From Escherichia coli (lineage in GTDB: Bacteria; Pseudomonadota; Gammaproteobacteria; Enterobacterales; Enterobacteriaceae), in the NCBI RefSeq assembly GCF_003334385.1, contig NZ_QOWN01000074.1: a stretch of DNA of 7,017 bases; one strand, 5' to 3'. The position numbers and the translations under genes were made by a program. A model generated the notes under the pieces. That model did no database searches. It was not told the origin of the DNA and saw only the letters and a program-made list of their open reading frames with translations. Positions 265 to 7,017 of this stretch are shown here, in pieces. Numbering within the stretch: position 1 is the stretch's first letter; each line of letters begins with the position of its first letter.

Positions 265-753
265 TTACCAGTTGAAAGTGGGTAAACCCGGCAGGCATTC
301 AGCGCTGGCATCCAGATGAATGAGACTGACGCCATAACGTCGGGTAAGTGTGATAACCAGACGACGGAACGTTTTTGACAGCCCCAGGCGTTTAAGCCGC
401 AGAACCGGATATGACCACGCATCGGTACGTAACAGATATCCGCTACCTGTGAAATGAATCCATTCTGATTCACCAACGTCACTGGTCTGATGCGACAGCG
501 AGTACAGCCAGGCGTTATCCTTTTCCGTGATATGTGCGGTACTGCAGCGTATGCCGGCAAGGGTTGCAAACGGTGGTAGTGTGCAGGTTGACTGTTGGTC
601 GGATTCCTCCACCACGCGGAGTGAATAACCGTTTTCAGCGACCTTGTTAATCAGTTCAGTGAGATTAACACCATCGACGTCAACGACAATTCGCCCCATG
701 TTCAGTGCCTGCACATTAATTCTGTCGGCTTCCAGCATCAGGGAAAGTTTCAT
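265..753 (-). CDS. DUF5983-like hypothetical protein (162 aa), encoded immediately downstream of the CbtA-family toxin
   Basis: Track ORF 265..753 (-), [29 protein letters not shown]... Its ATG (751-753) overlaps the toxin stop TGA (750-752) as ATGA, implying translational coupling. Position and size match the gene usually following cbtA paralogs. Family name is from memory. Confidence 0.75.
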
Positions 754-1124
754 CGTTTCTCCGGATGCTTACCCAGGGTAATGTTATTTACCGTTCTGTA
801 ATTGTCGCGGGTCATCAGGCCGGTCGCCCGGCGAGCCCGGAGGATATCAATACTGTTTATTAACTGAGAGCGGGGACAAGTGCTGAATCCCGGCTGGTCG
901 GTACGCACCAGCGCGTATTTTTCCACGAGAAAATTCACCGCATCACACAGTGAAATGCCAGCTTCAATATGCTGCTCAATCACACGTTCATCGGCGAACG
1001 GTGTGTCATTCAGTGTAAGGCCGTAATGCTGGCCCAGTAGTCGGGAGAGCAGAGTCTGCCAGATGGTGACGGGAGACGGGCAGCTCGATGCCTCCCGTAC
1101 GTGTGTATCGGGTAATGTTTTCAT
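750..1124 (-). CDS. cbtA: CbtA-family toxin (YeeV/YkfI/YpjF paralog group; type IV TA toxin that inhibits FtsZ/MreB polymerisation), 124 aa
   Basis: Track ORF 750..1124 (-). Protein MKTLP...[64 protein letters not shown]...[17 protein letters not shown] is near-identical over most of its length to E. coli K-12 YeeV/CbtA as I recall it. Shine-Dalgarno-like AGGAAA about 11 nt upstream of the ATG. I cannot tell which paralog it is, so the symbol is a family-level label. Confidence 0.92.
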
Positions 1125-1213
1125 ACTGAAGGTTTTCCTGATATGCAGAGATGAAAAATGGAAAAGTGGCGTGGTGAAAGCACCAGGCCGGAGCAGAAGG
1201 TTATTCCGGTGGT

Positions 1214-1582
1214 TTACTTTTTCGTTTCGGGCGTCGGATAAACAGCCAGATAAACGTAACCACCGCTACCGAGAGTGTCAGCTTTGCAGGTCAGACCTTT
1301 TGCATACAGCGTGACGGTATGCTGATGGCGGGGATTCAGTTCACCGCTGGTGAGCATGAGTTCCAGTTGTTTCATCAGCAGCGGAAAGGCCTGGTCCAGG
1401 TGGTACGCATCTGCATCGCTGAACAGGCCTCTGATACCGGCGCGGTCGGCAAGGTAATGCAGGCGGTTACCCTCCTGCACCAGACGGGCGCCGAAACAGG
1501 GCGTCACTGTGCAGGGTAGTCCCCACCAGGGATGGTCGTCATTGTCATCGGGATGCGTTGTCCCGGAAAGTGTGTCTGACAC
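1214..1582 (-). CDS. cbeA: CbeA-family antitoxin (YeeU/YafW/YfjZ paralog group), 122 aa, GTG start
   Basis: Within track ORF 1214..1690 (-). Sequence from [52 protein letters not shown]...[31 protein letters not shown] matches K-12 YeeU/CbeA as I recall it (K-12 begins MSDTLPGTT). The GTG at 1580-1582 aligns to the K-12 start and has a GAGGA Shine-Dalgarno about 7 nt upstream. The in-frame ATG at 1688-1690 (158-aa form) lacks a convincing RBS. An 89-bp spacer separates it from the toxin gene. Confidence 0.88.
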
Positions 1583-1744
1583 GATAAAATCCTCACAGAA
1601 AATCGGTGAATGATAGTTTAACGATGACGGGTCAGCCGGCGCGCAGACCGGCTTCGGTAAAGGTGTATTCGTTGATGAGCAGGACCTCATCCACAGCGGC
1701 GTCTGAGCTCAGCCAGTCGTACTCGTTTTCCGGGTGACGGAACA

Positions 1745-1966
1745 TCAGTTCAGGGTGACGCTCATCAGCCGGACATACGGACCAAAACTGTCCTTACGGC
1801 GTTCTGCAAACACGGCCAGCACACCGGGAATATCCTGCACTTCACGACCGGTATACGCTTCAGCACTGCCGTGCCAGCGGTATTTGCCGGTACAGAACGG
1901 AAAAAGACGGGATGCCGGATGCTGACGGTGAATACGCATGGCTTCGCCACGGGTGATGATTTTCAT
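1745..1966 (-). CDS. DUF987 small protein (YeeT/YkfH/YpjJ family), 73 aa
   Basis: Track ORF 1745..1966 (-), MKIITRGEAMRIHRQHPASRLFPFCTGKYRWHGSAEAYTGREVQDIPGVLAVFAERRKDSFGPYVRLMSVTLN. Matches my memory of YeeT-type proteins and sits between the radC-like gene and the antitoxin as in K-12 cryptic prophages. AGAGG motif about 10 nt upstream of the ATG. Confidence 0.85.
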   Translation of the reverse strand: MKIITRGEAMRIHRQHPASRLFPFCTGKYRWHGSAEAYTGREVQDIPGVLAVFAERRKDSFGPYVRLMSVTLN

Positions 1967-2028
1967 AGTGGGATACCTCTGAAGACAGAAGATAAAAGTG
2001 AAAACAGGTGTGATGTGGTTGTAACGGG

Positions 2029-2505
2029 TTAAAGCAGACCATGTTCGGCAAAGGAGAAAACCTGGCTGCCACCGATTATCAGATGGTCCGGCACCCGGAT
2101 ATCCACCAGGCCCAGTGCCTGTACCAGACGTTCCGTGATAAGGCGGTCTGCCTTGCTGGGTGTGACTTCACCGGACGGGTGATTGTGTGCCAGCACCACA
2201 GCAGCGGCATTGTGATACAGGGCGCGTTTAATCACTTCCCGGGGATGGACTTCCGTGCGGTTGATGGTGCCGGTGAAGAGGGTTTCACCGGCAATCAGCT
2301 GATTCTGGTTGTTCAGATACAGCACCCGGAACTCTTCACGCTCCAGTCCCGCCATGTTCAGAATCAGCCATTCCCGTGCCGCATGCGTGGAGGTGAAGGC
2401 CACGCCGGGTTCATGAAGATGGCGGTCCAGGGTTTTCAGGGCCCGCTGAATGAGGCTGCGCTCGCCGGGCGTCATGTTTCCGGGCAGAAAGGAAAGCTGT
2501 TGCAT
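2029..2505 (-). CDS. RadC-like JAB/JAMM-domain protein (YeeS/YkfG/YfjY family), 158 aa
   Basis: Track ORF 2029..2520 (-). Contains the JAMM metal-binding signature ...AAVVLAHNHPSGEVTPSKADRLIT... (H-x-H-P-S-G ... D), intact. Start chosen at the second ATG (2503-2505, MQQLSFLPG...) because GGAGA lies about 9 nt upstream and the resulting length matches K-12 paralogs. The first ATG (2518-2520) directly abuts the upstream stop and is an alternative. Confidence 0.88.
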   Translation of the reverse strand: MQQLSFLPGNMTPGERSLIQRALKTLDRHLHEPGVAFTSTHAAREWLILNMAGLEREEFRVLYLNNQNQLIAGETLFTGTINRTEVHPREVIKRALYHNAAAVVLAHNHPSGEVTPSKADRLITERLVQALGLVDIRVPDHLIIGGSQVFSFAEHGLL

Positions 2506-2520
2506 TGTACTTCTCTCCAT

Positions 2521-3006
2521 TCAGTCGATGATGCGCATAATGGCGCTGCATTCCGGATGCTGCAGGGCGTAATCCCGCAGCCGGTAATAATGGACCGTCA
2601 TGGCATAACACTCCGTACGACAGGCATGATGACTGTACGTCATCAGACAGGCAGCAATGCCGGCAGCTTCCGGACTCATTTCAGCGCGGTTACCGTTCAT
2701 GGCATTGAACAGTACCCATGTTTCGTCATCATCGTCATCCGGTTCGGGTGCCATAAATGCCCCGCCGTTGTTCAGGGTGTACAGATTCCAGATACCACCG
2801 CAGTAGTCTTCACACAGACGGTCCATCCAGCCGAAGACACGGGGCTCCAGGGTCACCCACTGTGGAATGAGGCCAAAGTGCTGCGGCCAGAAGCTGATGC
2901 GCTGTTCATCAGGGACTATGGTGGCAACCAACTGAGGCTGGTCATTCCCTGATGCAGCGGTTACGGAAACAGAAGATGTGGTGGAATTATGTGAAATGGT
3001 TTTCAT
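2521..3006 (-). CDS. Antirestriction protein, ArdB/KlcA-like (YfjX/YafX family), 161 aa
   Basis: Track ORF 2521..3006 (-), with AAGGAG Shine-Dalgarno 8 nt upstream of the ATG. Contains an acidic run PEPDDDDDETW and the motif FGWMDRLCEDYCGGIWNLYTLNNGGAFMAPE that I associate with this family. Sits immediately upstream of the radC-like gene, as antirestriction genes do in CP4-type islands. Family call is from memory and gene order. Confidence 0.75.
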   Translation of the reverse strand: MKTISHNSTTSSVSVTAASGNDQPQLVATIVPDEQRISFWPQHFGLIPQWVTLEPRVFGWMDRLCEDYCGGIWNLYTLNNGGAFMAPEPDDDDDETWVLFNAMNGNRAEMSPEAAGIAACLMTYSHHACRTECYAMTVHYYRLRDYALQHPECSAIMRIID

Positions 3007-3060
3007 GAAATGACTCCTTAAAGGACAAATAAATGCGTGGTTTTCAGGGTAATGGCTGAA

Positions 3061-3879
3061 TCAGCGCAGGCTCTCCAGCAGGGTTTCCGCCATCACCCAC
3101 AATGCGCGGTTGAGCTTAATGTCAGTGTCAATGCTGTGAATGGCACGGGTATGGATACGTTTTCCTTTAGCGCTGCGACCTGAAATTCCGCCTTTCAGCA
3201 TATTCTCCTGAATGGTCTGATAAGCACTCCACAGGTCCTTACCGTAATCCTCCCGGCGTCGTGGCGTCAGAATGTCGGCGGTGGTGACGGGCTGATGTTC
3301 GTCACCATAACGGTAAGTCAGTGCCGCCTGTGCCAGCGCCTGGCGTGCCGGTGGCGGCAGAATCAGCGACTGCATGGCATCACGCTTTTCCTCAATCCGG
3401 TCAAACACGCCCACCACCTTGTAAGCCCCTTCAATGACTCTGTCCACCACATTTCCCCGGTGCGGAACACGCACTTCCCCCAGAGACTGACCACAGACGC
3501 ATCCGTTCTGGCAGACGAACCTGAAGTAACCCGGCAGCATCTGGTAGCTGGAGGTACCGTCATGAGAGTTGAGCAGAATAATTTCAGGGACATGTTCTCC
3601 GTTTATCTCTCCGGCCCGCCGCAGACGCAGCATGTGTTTTGTGTATCCCCGGCGGCCCGGGTCGCGCACACGGGTCTGGCAGGCGAAGAATGGCTGAAAG
3701 CCTTCCCGCTGCAGGCTTTCCAGTACGGTGATGGTGGGGATGTACGTATAGTTCTGGCTTCGGGACGTGTGTTTATCTTCCCCGAAAATCCCCGGCACAT
3801 AGTGCATCAGTTCTTCGTGTGTCAGCGGACGGTCACGGCGTATCTGGTTCGCATAACCAAAACGACTGGCTAGTCGCAT
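3061..3879 (-). CDS. DUF932 domain protein (YfjQ/YafZ family), 272 aa
   Basis: Track ORF 3061..3879 (-), MRLASRFGYANQIRRDRPLTHEELMHYVPGIFGEDKH...SHDGTSSYQMLPG...KLNRALWVMAETLLESLR. Closely resembles K-12 YafZ/YfjQ as I recall them. Strong AAGGAG Shine-Dalgarno 5-6 nt upstream of the ATG at 3877-3879. Stop TGA at 3061-3063. Confidence 0.85.
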   Translation of the reverse strand: MRLASRFGYANQIRRDRPLTHEELMHYVPGIFGEDKHTSRSQNYTYIPTITVLESLQREGFQPFFACQTRVRDPGRRGYTKHMLRLRRAGEINGEHVPEIILLNSHDGTSSYQMLPGYFRFVCQNGCVCGQSLGEVRVPHRGNVVDRVIEGAYKVVGVFDRIEEKRDAMQSLILPPPARQALAQAALTYRYGDEHQPVTTADILTPRRREDYGKDLWSAYQTIQENMLKGGISGRSAKGKRIHTRAIHSIDTDIKLNRALWVMAETLLESLR

Positions 3880-3916
3880 AATTTGCTCCTTATCGGTGGT
3901 TAAGATTTACTGGTGT

Positions 3917-3955
3917 AATAAATGAAAAAGCCACGTCTCCCGGAGAAGACGCGGC
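3917..3955 (-). terminator. Rho-independent terminator downstream of the DUF905 gene
   Basis: On the minus strand: GCCGCGTCT-TCTCCGGG-AGACGTGGC (9-bp stem with one G.U pair, plus-strand 3930-3955) followed by TTTTTCATTTATT (plus-strand 3917-3929). Lies in the intergenic region between the DUF905 stop (3979) and the DUF932 start (3879). Confidence 0.6.
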
Positions 3956-3978
3956 CTGATGGGTGAAATGAATGACGT

Positions 3979-4212
3979 TTATTGTCTGAGAAGACCGTCA
4001 CTGGCGAGCCGCGTATTAAGCACCTTTCCGGCATCGGGTTCAGAATTCCGGCAGCGCCAGCGTCGCTGACCTTCCGCGTTGCGGATAACCCGACGGAAAT
4101 GCATTCCCGGGTCATCCTGGATAAACACATTGCGGTAAGCGGTTATGACAGCAACCGCCTGCCCGTATGAGAAAGATCCTTCAGCCAGGACATACTCTGT
4201 GTAACCCGGCAT
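3979..4212 (-). CDS. DUF905-like small protein (YkfF-like), 77 aa
   Basis: Track ORF 3979..4212 (-). Motif [29 protein letters not shown] resembles the conserved core I recall for DUF905 proteins in K-12 cryptic prophages. AGGAG Shine-Dalgarno about 9 nt upstream of the ATG. Flanked by terminators on both sides. Confidence 0.72.
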
Positions 4213-4225
4213 ATCTGTTTTCTCC

Positions 4226-4266
4226 TGATAAATAAAAAGCCTCTGCCACGCGTTGTGACAGAGGCT
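4226..4266 (-). terminator. Rho-independent terminator downstream of the signal-peptide protein gene
   Basis: On the minus strand: AGCCTCTG-t-CAC-aacgc-GTG-g-CAGAGGCT (plus-strand 4238-4266), a GC-rich stem of 8+3 bp, followed by TTTTATTTATCA (plus-strand 4226-4237). Located 25 nt after the stop of the 4291..4746 gene and 25 nt before the DUF905 start. Confidence 0.65.
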
Positions 4267-4290
4267 GAAGCATGAAACTGACTTCAGGGA

Positions 4291-4746
4291 TCAGTTAACG
4301 TTTTTTCCGGAAACGGTAATCAGCAGTGGATGGTAGTCCTGGGGATTGAAAACCGATAACGGCAGACTGACACGATGGCCGTTACTTTCTTCAGTTGCTT
4401 TGATGATTTCGGTTGTGGCGACATTTTCCACGCACTCCGTTTCCAGAAATGCGTCTGTGGTTCGCGTGGCATTACTGTCACCAAAAGCTTCCGTTTCCAT
4501 TTTTCTGGTCACCAGCGTCTGACCATATTTGTCTTTGAGTTGCAGAGTGATGGTGAGGGGGCCAAATCCTTCATCGTTTCCGCCATTATCCAGCCGGAAC
4601 TGGTAAGCACAAATATTTCCCGGGAGCCATATCGTATCTGTATTGCGTATACTGATGTAACGTTGATCCTGTGCCCGGAGTGGGGCAGACCACGTTAACC
4701 CCAGAATGAAGGCGGTAATCATGCAGGTTTTGAACAGGTGAATCAT
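4291..4746 (-). CDS. Small secreted/periplasmic protein of unknown function, 151 aa, with predicted Sec signal peptide
   Basis: Track ORF 4291..4746 (-). N-terminus MIHLFKTCMITAFILGLTWSAPLRA/QDQ has a typical n-h-c signal peptide with an AxA-like cleavage site and no lipobox. Mature part has two Cys (possible disulfide). GAGAGG Shine-Dalgarno about 8 nt upstream of the ATG. Lies 75 bp downstream of the large membrane protein gene with no terminator between them. I recognise no family. Confidence 0.65.
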   Translation of the reverse strand: MIHLFKTCMITAFILGLTWSAPLRAQDQRYISIRNTDTIWLPGNICAYQFRLDNGGNDEGFGPLTITLQLKDKYGQTLVTRKMETEAFGDSNATRTTDAFLETECVENVATTEIIKATEESNGHRVSLPLSVFNPQDYHPLLITVSGKNVN

Positions 4747-4821: not shown

Positions 4822-7017
4822 TTATGCCGGTAACTCCGGGGGTAATGCTTCTTCCAGTCGGTTAACCATATTGCCGAGATGGGATGCATCATATTCCATG
4901 ACGGGGCGTTGCCTGATGATACTGACCACCAGTGGTTTGATTAACATATTGGTCGCGGCCCGTTGTTGTATACCGGCGGCGAAAATGATCTCCAGAGCAT
5001 TCTGATCGATAACACGGGCCAGATTCTCGTTCAGATTTTCAATCTCATGTCCGGTCAGCAGGAAACTGCCGGCAAGCCATGTCACCTGCTCCTGAATCAT
5101 TGCCAGAATTTTGACGCGATCTTCTTCAACCAGCGCTCCGGCAATTTTTCCTGATACAGCGGAGGCAATCATTCCCCCCAGAACACCGCCAACCACACGC
5201 CCTGTCAGTGCACCAAATGGTCCCAGTGGACTGAACAGTATTCCGCCCGCCACTGACCCGACAGCACCACCTGCCACACCGGAAGATGCCACGGCAAGAT
5301 TCCTGATGAACTGCGTACCGGAGATCCGTCCCCGCAACATTTTGATCATGTCAGGGCCGGTTGTGACAGCTACCAGTGCCAGAGATGTCACCAGCGTACC
5401 CTTCATTACTTTGTTCAGGGCACTGATATTTCCTGCACCGTTCCCCTTCTGAAGAGCCAGTCGGACAGTCGGGCTGGCAGTCGAAAAATCAATGTGCTTC
5501 AGCATACCCTGAACAACACTGAGCCGGTGGAGTTGCTGGGTTGTGACGTAGACAGCCAGTGTGCGGGTGAAGGTTTTTCCTGCCTGGACAGCAGCTGTCT
5601 GCAGGGCAGCATCGCGATCGCCGGTGCTGAGCCAGAAGACCGATGCCGTCAGGGCAAAACTGATCCCTCCGGCCGCCAGACTGACAACCGAACCCTCGGC
5701 AATATCATAAGTGACCGATTCGATGGTCCCGAACCGGGTGATATTACGGGCCTGAGTATAAGTCAGATGTCCCCGACGAATCAGCCGGGACGCTTCTGCG
5801 GGATCGGTTACACCGGGTACTTTACCTTCGCGGATCTTATTCCTCATGGTTTCAACAGCGCCGGCATACTGATCACGGGGGACTTCCAGTTGCATGGGGC
5901 CATTATTTCCCATGTAACGATACTGTCCGTTTTGTCCGTCGAATGCCGCACCGACGCTACGGGCTGCAGTTGAACAATATTTCGTCTGGATTTCTGTTCC
6001 GCTGACCAGTCTGTCTGCTCCATTTCTGGCATTATTATCACCGAGGATCCGTGCGTTTTTCAGACGGACTCTGTCGACAATATGGTTTCCCCGTTCAGCG
6101 GCAAACCCATGTCCCTGCCCTCCGGAAGCAAACATTTTCTCATTTGTACTCCAGGTTTCCGGCAGTTTCATGAGAATCAGACCATTCGCCGTTGCATCGG
6201 AAATAAAGCTGTTGTAAGGGCGTTCATAAATTTCCTGACACAGTGTTTCTGTTTCGCGACAAAGAGAGGAGCAGTACCATTCCGGATCCGGCTTATGATT
6301 TTCCGGGGCATGATGTACTTCTGTCAGCCCGCAGGAGGCACAGATACGAAGCTCATCCACGTGATGGAATGATACAAAACGGCGACCTTCTGAAAAGGGA
6401 TACCAGTCACCGCCGTCCAGGCAACGATCGAGAAAATCGTCATTCGCTTCCGGTGATAAATTCAGGCGGTTCCGGAAGAGCGTTTTCAGTTCATCAGGTG
6501 TGAATGACAGGTTCTCTTTCAACTGTTCGTTAAACCCTGCCATGTTTCTTTCATACCAGGCATTGTTCAGTAACCAGTTTCCGTCTGCCAGTTCAAATTC
6601 CCTCAGCTCTCCCCGGGAAATCCGTTGAGAAATGAGCGTCAGCCAGATGCGCTCCGTCAGTGAGTCAGGAAGGCTGTAATCGTTTTGCAAACTGGTCAGC
6701 CACGATTTACTGTTGAGCACCGGTTGTTCTTCCAGTGTCTGGCTGATGGCACAGGTCAGTTTTTTCAGCGCCTGGATCTGGCTGGCCGCCCATAGCAGCG
6801 TCACTAATGCAGCCAGCCAGTACAACAACCCGCCCCACCACATCAGTGACGGTGAAATATCGTACTGTAACGCGATCAATGGTGCGCATGCAGAACACGC
6901 CATAAGGAAAAAGGCAGTATAAAAACAGCAGTAATACCCGTTAATTTCCTTGCTGATATCTTCTGGTGTGATCCCGTTCTGCTGAATGTTTTTGATCTGC
7001 AGGGGAACAGCCAGCAG
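4822..7017 (-). CDS. Large membrane protein of unknown function, 5'-truncated at the window edge (>=731 codons visible)
   Basis: Track ORF 4822..6903 (-) of 693 aa; the same frame stays open from 6904 to 7017 by my manual translation (...LLAVPLQIKNIQQNGITPEDISKEINGYYCCFYTAFFL-MACSAC...), so the true start is outside the window. Predicted N-terminal hydrophobic helices (6772..6843 and upstream). Cys cluster C-x2-C...C-x3-C...C at about 6238..6342. Further hydrophobic segments and a glycine-zipper-rich stretch SGVAGGAVGSVAGGILFSPLGPFGALTGRVVGGVLGGMIASAVSGKIAG at about 5134..5301. Stop TAA at 4822-4824. Occupies the slot held by YeeR/YfjW-type membrane proteins or Ag43 in K-12 islands, but I cannot confirm homology to those. 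Confidence 0.7.
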   Translation of the reverse strand: MLAVPLQIKNIQQNGITPEDISKEINGYYCCFYTAFFLMACSACAPLIALQYDISPSLMWWGGLLYWLAALVTLLWAASQIQALKKLTCAISQTLEEQPVLNSKSWLTSLQNDYSLPDSLTERIWLTLISQRISRGELREFELADGNWLLNNAWYERNMAGFNEQLKENLSFTPDELKTLFRNRLNLSPEANDDFLDRCLDGGDWYPFSEGRRFVSFHHVDELRICASCGLTEVHHAPENHKPDPEWYCSSLCRETETLCQEIYERPYNSFISDATANGLILMKLPETWSTNEKMFASGGQGHGFAAERGNHIVDRVRLKNARILGDNNARNGADRLVSGTEIQTKYCSTAARSVGAAFDGQNGQYRYMGNNGPMQLEVPRDQYAGAVETMRNKIREGKVPGVTDPAEASRLIRRGHLTYTQARNITRFGTIESVTYDIAEGSVVSLAAGGISFALTASVFWLSTGDRDAALQTAAVQAGKTFTRTLAVYVTTQQLHRLSVVQGMLKHIDFSTASPTVRLALQKGNGAGNISALNKVMKGTLVTSLALVAVTTGPDMIKMLRGRISGTQFIRNLAVASSGVAGGAVGSVAGGILFSPLGPFGALTGRVVGGVLGGMIASAVSGKIAGALVEEDRVKILAMIQEQVTWLAGSFLLTGHEIENLNENLARVIDQNALEIIFAAGIQQRAATNMLIKPLVVSIIRQRPVMEYDASHLGNMVNRLEEALPPELPA

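Follow-up and report, generated by a model that had tools for sequence, protein, structure and literature searches.

A stretch of 7,017 nucleotides of Escherichia coli DNA (NCBI RefSeq assembly GCF_003334385.1, contig NZ_QOWN01000074.1; hereafter the window) carries on its minus strand a long gene whose product, judged by its sequence, is full-length YeeR, a member of the YeeR_C family (PF27347). The Gly-rich region of this gene encodes a glycine-zipper helical hairpin situated inside the YeeR_C module of the protein: two predicted helices of ~23 residues are joined by a Pro/Gly turn, and each carries a conserved in-register ladder of Gly residues. A membrane-permeabilising or depolarising role for this zipper, first proposed in an earlier note made from the DNA letters, is plausible by analogy with glycine-zipper toxins. 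The best explanation that we can offer, held tentatively and a little short of probable, is that the hairpin acts as a conditionally inserting, self-associating, membrane-depolarising effector.

Sequence and conservation of the hairpin

Read on the minus strand, positions 5134-5301 translate to NLAVASSGVAGGAVGSVAGGILFSPLGPFGALTGRVVGGVLGGMIASAVSGKIAGA, in frame with the long coding sequence (CDS). The stretch quoted in the earlier note comprises 49 residues and corresponds to residues 686-734 of an 838-residue protein, which places it in the C-terminal half, as claimed there. It contains 15 Gly (31%, against 8.7% for the protein as a whole), and residue 686 is exactly where the most Gly-rich 49-residue segment of the protein begins. 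In 20,000 composition-preserving shuffles of the residues of this stretch, 4.0 +/- 1.5 GxxxG pairs and 13.4 +/- 1.8 small-xxx-small pairs were obtained, compared with 8 (P ~0.009) and 18 (P ~0.011), respectively, in the actual sequence; the repeated spacing of small residues that had been pointed out is therefore above what composition alone would give.

A glycine zipper is defined by the motif (G/A/S)xxxGxxxG or GxxxGxxx(G/S/T) (quoted in PMC12744356). Both ladders, read off the sequence, match this definition, and position 702 in the first helix is Gly in most relatives. Two AlphaFold models, one of the full-length protein and one of the module alone, built from an alignment of 76 sequences, both contain the two zipper helices with a break at 705-707. 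With the motif matched twice and conserved, and with both segments predicted to be helical and to form a hairpin, the name given to this region in the earlier note is an appropriate one.

Conservation is a stronger argument for the zipper than periodicity. Across 31 full-length homologs, which are 29-67% identical to the query and of which the named ones include Gamma- and Betaproteobacteria, G690, G694, G698, G713, G717 and G721 show no variation, and P707 shows almost none. The pattern extends to the wider family (the 76-sequence alignment, ~30-35% identity), where Gly at 690/691, 694, 698, 709, 713, 717 and 721/722 is retained in 60-73 of the 76 sequences, the three Gly residues of the first helix (690, 694 and 698) being kept in 66-73 of them. 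At least two (G/A/S)xxxGxxxG matches are present in 217 of the 225 complete modules. Expressed as the fraction of sequences carrying the majority residue, conservation is 0.73 in the head of the module, 0.58 in the zipper and 0.34-0.36 in the N-terminal half, the N-terminal part evolving faster than the module (0.34-0.36 versus 0.55-0.73).

The Gly-rich coding region also accounts for a proline-rich open reading frame (ORF) on the plus strand, as had been supposed in the earlier note: all 15 of the sense Gly codons (GGN) of the region are mirrored as Pro codons (CCN) in the antisense frame. A true plus-strand proline-rich gene was ruled out by this codon mirror, by the nesting of the ORF in a conserved CDS and by its TTG start.

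Full-length and truncated YeeR

The long CDS leaves the window at position 7017, and the ORF of 693 residues listed for it corresponds to residues 146-838 of the complete protein, its start being the internal Met146. In a genome that is 99.9% identical (NZ_CP029242.1), the CDS is annotated as an 838-residue 'hypothetical protein' directly downstream of agn43. The published operon order is agn43-yeeR-irmA (PMC4807369), and the gene of the window is likewise located downstream of agn43. The YeeR of E. coli K-12 is 100% identical to residues 1-507 of the window protein, and PF27347 (YeeR_C) is the precomputed assignment both for the cluster of the window protein and for its homologs.

In K-12, whose yeeR (b2001, 'inner membrane protein YeeR') belongs to the CP4-44 prophage, a deletion has left only a remnant of the gene (PMC6480617, PMC4807369). 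The 510-residue YeeR of strain MG1655 consists of residues 1-507 fused by the deletion to the start of yeeS, and the whole helical part, including the zipper, is missing from it. Data obtained with the K-12 'YeeR' are therefore uninformative on the zipper, and the fragmentary state of this copy may be one reason why YeeR has stayed uncharacterised; our literature searches found no functional study of it. Among 5,426 complete E. coli genomes, 2,579 contain DNA that matches yeeR, some with as many as 5 copies. Only 1,800 of the genomes have a copy in which 80% or more of the queried part of yeeR is covered, so disrupted or truncated copies are common, in agreement with the insertion sequence (IS) insertions and deletions that have been reported in yeeR (PMC9431211).

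Distribution of the module, its fusion partners and neighbours

The YeeR_C module comprises ~430 residues: an alpha/beta head, five long and marginally hydrophobic helices, among which the zipper is found, and a helical tail. A profile search with the module retrieved 2,349 cluster representatives (729 at E <= 1e-30) from Proteobacteria, Firmicutes, Campylobacter, Spirochaetes and others. It occurs at the C-terminus of YeeR-type proteins, alone (~480 residues) or at the N-terminus of long proteins, and its fusion partners include Sel1/TPR repeats, an FGE-sulfatase domain, beta-helix repeats and zinc ribbons. Some YeeR_C proteins carry three repeats resembling the N-terminal part of BnzA (PADLOC BnzA model, E 1e-54 to 1e-58). 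BnzA and BnzB make up Bunzi, an experimentally validated defence system in which BnzA has TerB, transmembrane (TM) and lipid-binding parts and for which 'membrane surveillance' has been proposed (bioRxiv 10.1101/2022.05.11.491447).

No conserved neighbour of proteobacterial YeeR genes was found among the five loci examined, and clustering of neighbours across 80 genome loci, based on crude ORF calling, again yielded no conserved partner for them. Variable regions with toxin-antitoxin and mobile-element genes adjacent are the setting of all but the Dyella locus among the five; the surroundings include, locus by locus, RES-Xre, HicAB with a TIR gene and IS66, HepT-MNT with an integrase and transposases, and IS elements.

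Firmicute-type loci have recurrent neighbours. A WYL regulator is found in 7 of them, and one stands beside the module gene on the Lactococcus conjugative plasmid pNCDO184A as well, where the homolog is named 'glycine zipper family protein' by NCBI; the lactococcal plasmidome paper does not mention a YeeR_C-type gene. A coiled-coil/Sel1 partner gene lies downstream in 10 Firmicute-type loci and is fused to the module in one protein (P0173, BLASTP E 1e-42). This recurrent partner was considered as a possible BnzB and rejected, as it is not BnzB-like. Genes for TerB-like proteins of 135 residues, 43% identical between the two loci, precede two module genes, a separate BnzA-N-like gene lies upstream of the module in a Firmicute-type locus, and a BnzB-like gene lies downstream of it in one locus (E 1e-23). 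For several of these context links, the basis is no more than one or two loci. The non-proteobacterial operons combining the module with WYL, TerB-like, BnzA-N-like or BnzB-like genes look like an undescribed, Bunzi-related candidate system.

On one metagenomic contig, a stand-alone YeeR_C protein of 476 residues (P0230) is encoded directly downstream of a type III-B (Cmr) CRISPR locus and cas2, and is followed by a gene for a 203-residue protein. Carriage by phages or plasmids was rejected as an explanation, since the module was found in 1 of 50,697 phage records and on only a handful of true plasmids. Overall, a constant module is combined with many different sensor-like domains and, in distant relatives, with defence-type neighbours.

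Hydrophobicity and structure models

Hydropathy and apparent free energies of insertion (dGapp) predict six strong TM helices in the N-terminal part of E. coli YeeR (summed dGapp ~-2 to +6). Of 75 proteins of the wider family, 67 lack any 19-residue segment below +0.5, the median for the best segment being +2.2. Most YeeR_C proteins thus lack a classical TM helix, and the marginal helices of the module are their sole hydrophobic elements. The zipper helices are therefore not ordinary anchors, the more so as six strong TM helices are already predicted in E. coli YeeR. Such a hydrophobicity pattern fits soluble or peripheral proteins that insert conditionally.

The AlphaFold model of the module alone has a mean predicted local distance difference test score (pLDDT) of 83.5 and a predicted template modelling score (pTM) of 0.77, with pLDDT values of 90-98 in the head and 85-91 in the long helices; the three helices that precede the zipper pack with the hairpin in this model. 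The low monomer pLDDT of the zipper itself would be compatible with an oligomeric interface, without proving one. Foldseek searches of the PDB with this improved model returned nothing below E 0.25, and hence no significant match of the module to any solved structure. The folds nearest to the module model were Tim22 and Tim17 together with the TM domains of MgtE and MATE proteins. The resemblance to Tim22/Tim17 most likely arises through the helical part of the module; Tim17/Tim22 four-TM bundles pack via GxxxG motifs. With the full-length model, Foldseek retrieved only winged-helix proteins from the PDB, among them ESCRT-II, F93 and SelB, at probabilities of 0.9-0.99, yet with E values of at least 0.06, and the residue range of the winged-helix region was taken from the secondary-structure pattern.

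The head contains the invariant residues E415, N418, D422, D442, R443, Q451, K453, Y454, E485, P487, D489 and Q490. Its secondary-structure order, alpha-beta-beta-beta-alpha-beta, is that of a PD-(D/E)xK-like core, a fold in which helix 1 bears an acidic residue, a D comes before strand 2 and strand 3 has (D/E/Q)xK; the likeness was confirmed by no fold or profile search.

Relation to known glycine zippers and defence systems

No family for YeeR or its relatives was found in NCBIfam, PHROGs gave just a weak tape-measure match over the Gly-rich part, and a sequence search of the PDB with the single protein found no match. A profile search of the PDB returned only compositional matches to the zipper (the tape measure 9ki1, Rhs1 6xrr and SlyB 7ojf). 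The zipper's weak matches, prone to compositional bias, are to the Pfam 'Glycine zipper 2TM' family, DUF1269, SlyB, the TM segment of Rhs prePAAR, a tape-measure protein and C19orf12.

The toxins TelE, EsxX and TspA of type VII secretion systems, Tse4 and Tse5-CT of type VI secretion systems and the N-terminus of VacA have, like YeeR, a (G/A/S)xxxGxxxG ladder in marginally hydrophobic helices (PMC12744356). TelE, EsxX, TspA, Tse4 and Tse5 depolarise membranes, some of them from the cytoplasmic side, and sequestration of the zipper keeps such toxins harmless, as in EsxX-ExiAB and the Rhs cage of Tse5 (PMC12744356). No sequence or fold homology between these toxins and YeeR was detected, and their LXG, Rhs and PAAR delivery domains were not found in YeeR with Pfam, NCBIfam and PADLOC. 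An adjacent immunity gene of the toxin type was not found either, since proteobacterial YeeR loci have no conserved neighbour and the E. coli neighbours are agn43 and irmA. Unlike the secreted toxins, YeeR is predicted to be a resident inner-membrane protein, with its zipper embedded in a large conserved module.

A two-helix Gly-zipper hairpin of ~45 residues is likewise found in the Pfam families Gly-zipper_Omp (PF13488), Gly-zipper_YMGG (PF13441) and Rick_17kDa_Anti (PF05433). Relatives of YeeR match Pfam glycine-zipper families below threshold (E 0.003-0.2), and for E. coli YeeR itself no match to these three was found. The families of this SlyB/PCP type are small outer-membrane lipoproteins, whereas YeeR is a large multi-domain protein of the inner membrane or cytoplasm. 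In a Pfam-A library that did not contain PF27347, the sole match of E. coli YeeR was to the C19orf12-like family PF20721 (E 0.014-0.022), named after the human gene of mitochondrial membrane protein-associated neurodegeneration (MPAN). Aligned with hhalign, YeeR_C and C19orf12 match over 63 columns in the region of residues 663-731 (probability 70%, E 4e-5), including the pre-zipper motif (DMIKMLRGRIS versus DIMKLLCSLS) and both zipper helices with their GP turn. The match stops short of the flanking domains and is composition-prone, and the C19orf12 profile was made from vertebrate sequences only; C19orf12 is the best of the zipper's sequence-level matches and, as such, a candidate homolog only.

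Likeness to Bunzi is limited to distant YeeR_C relatives, with their BnzA-N-like repeats or gene, TerB-like genes and BnzB-like gene. No BnzA or BnzB match was found for E. coli YeeR or for its neighbours, the BnzA model does not include YeeR_C itself, and the commonest partner gene of the Firmicute loci differs from Bunzi in not being BnzB-like. As a kind of motif, the glycine zipper is to be expected; the novelty lies in its setting, a large, structurally unmatched and widespread module, which may be a defence effector.

Possible function of the hairpin

In favour of the hairpin as a depolarising effector, the zipper belongs to an unvarying module that occurs joined to many variable domains of sensor-like character and that has links to defence-type genes. 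At rest, the hairpin would be packed against the other helices and thereby auto-inhibited. A signal at the variable part of the protein, which in E. coli would consist of the six TM helices, the tandem winged helices and the zinc ribbon, possibly with participation of the conserved head, would then cause the hairpin to insert into, or rearrange in, the inner membrane from the cytoplasmic side. There the hairpins would self-associate via their Gly faces and dissipate the membrane potential, as glycine-zipper toxins do, and YeeR would thereby be a self-contained abortive-infection or exclusion-type protein.

A number of observations weigh against such a role. The zipper is the least confident part of the module model (pLDDT 55-65), and the summed dGapp of each zipper helix is marginal at ~+5 kcal/mol (other module helices give ~+2.5 for residues 550-568 and ~+6.6 for 644-662), sums that take no account of position dependence. 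The head, best conserved and with catalytic-looking residues, may be the true effector, the helices being a mere tether. The links to defence were seen in distant relatives, some of them at one locus only, and the sole PADLOC defence-model match of E. coli YeeR is a weak one (E 3e-6) to PDC-M09B, an unpublished candidate system of which we found no mention in the literature. In uropathogenic E. coli (UPEC), the genes transcribed together with yeeR are those of the phase-variable adhesin Ag43 and the vaccine antigen IrmA, not defence genes, and the literature describes YeeR as uncharacterised (PMC4807369). An operon of an adhesin and a secreted immune mimic is in itself no pointer to defence.

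Nearly as likely is a static role, with the zipper as a permanent packing motif in a stable bundle embedded in or peripheral to the membrane; no pore would then be formed, and the bundle would hold or oligomerise the head at the membrane. The work would be done by this head, which may be a nuclease of PD-(D/E)xK-like fold or a domain that binds a ligand. The head is indeed the best conserved part, with the invariant E415, D442, Q451 and K453 occurring in the alpha-beta-beta-beta-alpha-beta order, and the winged-helix and zinc-ribbon domains suggest nucleic-acid binding. The Tim22/Tim17, MgtE and MATE TM domains that are nearest to the module model point the same way, and GxxxG motifs are common in ordinary membrane proteins. 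Less easily reconciled with a permanent bundle are the absence of a classical TM helix from most family members, the just marginal hydrophobicity of the five helices, and the loop at 571-645, whose ~nine Lys/Arg would sit awkwardly if a four-TM topology placed this loop in the periplasm. The same marginal hydrophobicity would suit a hairpin that never meets the membrane and forms the Gly/Ala-rich core of a soluble bundle, its glycines allowing close packing; in the AlphaFold model the five helices and those of the C-terminus form a single compact module (pTM 0.77), and many family proteins look soluble overall. This we consider quite improbable, as the segment resembles glycine-zipper 2TM families and membrane proteins rather than soluble bundles, its charged flanks are typical of a hairpin with both ends on the same side of a membrane, the family is linked to TerB and to BnzA components of the lipid-binding, 'membrane surveillance' type, and E. 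coli YeeR is predicted to be anchored in the inner membrane by six TM helices.

A Gly-rich composition can inflate profile matches, and those to tape-measure and SlyB-type proteins are compositional, so that one might take the segment for a chance or low-complexity linker with no specific function. This is very improbable indeed: the periodicity exceeds that of composition-preserving shuffles, the segment is predicted to be helical rather than disordered, and six glycines keep their positions at 29% overall identity, with the motif in 217 of 225 modules. The conservation data effectively refute a chance origin. Returning to the depolarising effector, a far-reaching form of it can be put forward, unlikely as it is when taken as a whole. 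YeeR_C would be the effector module of a large, unrecognised anti-phage or anti-plasmid family, carried by roughly every second complete E. coli genome and expressed phase-variably with Ag43 in UPEC, its hairpin depolarising the cell from inside under a nuclease-like or ligand-binding head and variable sensors; the hairpin would furthermore be an ancient relative of the human C19orf12 zipper.

Features and surroundings of yeeR in the window

The features of yeeR are collected in Table 1. The window comes from a CP4-44-like E. coli island, and every gene in the window is on the minus strand, the string running DUF5983, cbtA, cbeA, DUF987, a radC-like JAB gene, an antirestriction gene, DUF932, DUF905, irmA and then the long CDS. 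From DUF5983 to irmA (265-4746, minus strand) this is the usual string of CP4-44/CP4-57-type islands, including the cbtA/cbeA toxin-antitoxin pair; these genes look mobile-element-derived and bear no relation to the zipper.

Table 1. Features of yeeR and its antisense strand, in window coordinates.
Feature	Position	Strand	Residues and remarks
yeeR CDS	4822..7017	-	108-838 plus stop; first 107 residues (~four TM helices) lie beyond the window end
Last two of six predicted N-terminal TM helices	6781..6927	-	138-156, 168-186; hydropathy and dGapp scan
Probable tandem winged-helix region	6349..6726	-	~205-330; Foldseek matches
Zinc-ribbon-like CxxC...CSxxC...C	6238..6342	-	C333, C336, C356, C360, C367; cysteines invariant
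Alpha/beta head of YeeR_C module	5704..6141	-	~400-545; best-conserved part
Three long helices before zipper	5335..5703	-	546-572 hydrophobic, 575-605 amphipathic, 638-668 moderately hydrophobic
Conserved basic pre-zipper motif RGRISGTQFIRN	5299..5334	-	669-680; family consensus RGRISxxQxxKN; majority-residue fraction 0.73
Region of the earlier note, covering the glycine-zipper helical hairpin	5134..5301	-	680-735
Zipper helix 1	5230..5298	-	681-703; ladder S686-G690-G694-G698
Tight turn PLGPF	5215..5229	-	704-708; P707 near-invariant
Zipper helix 2	5140..5214	-	709-733; ladder G709-G713-G717-G721-A725-S729
Conserved acidic post-zipper motif LVEED	5119..5133	-	736-740; family consensus FIEDD
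C-terminal helical domain	4846..5127	-	~738-831; pLDDT 85-94
Proline-rich ORF	5111..5452	+	113 residues, TTG start, 22 Pro; mirror of Gly-rich sense codons

Among 134 full-length YeeR-type homologs, 69 end in -AA (MAA, LAA, IAA, AAA or VAA), compared with ~1% expected from composition; a further 20 end in -VA and 5 in -PA, and the E. coli protein ends in -LPA (window 4825-4840). The -AA tails resemble the ssrA-type C-terminal degron, and the level of the protein may be set by proteolysis.

Implications

If the zipper only packs helices, it is nothing out of the ordinary in the structure of a membrane-associated protein. The analysis yields concrete residues to mutate, and K-12 offers a natural null background in which to do so. 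Should the zipper prove to be a regulated depolarising element, YeeR would make up an abortive-infection or exclusion system by itself, as a single protein, and YeeR_C would be a reusable effector employed across Proteobacteria, Firmicutes, Campylobacter, Spirochaetes and others.

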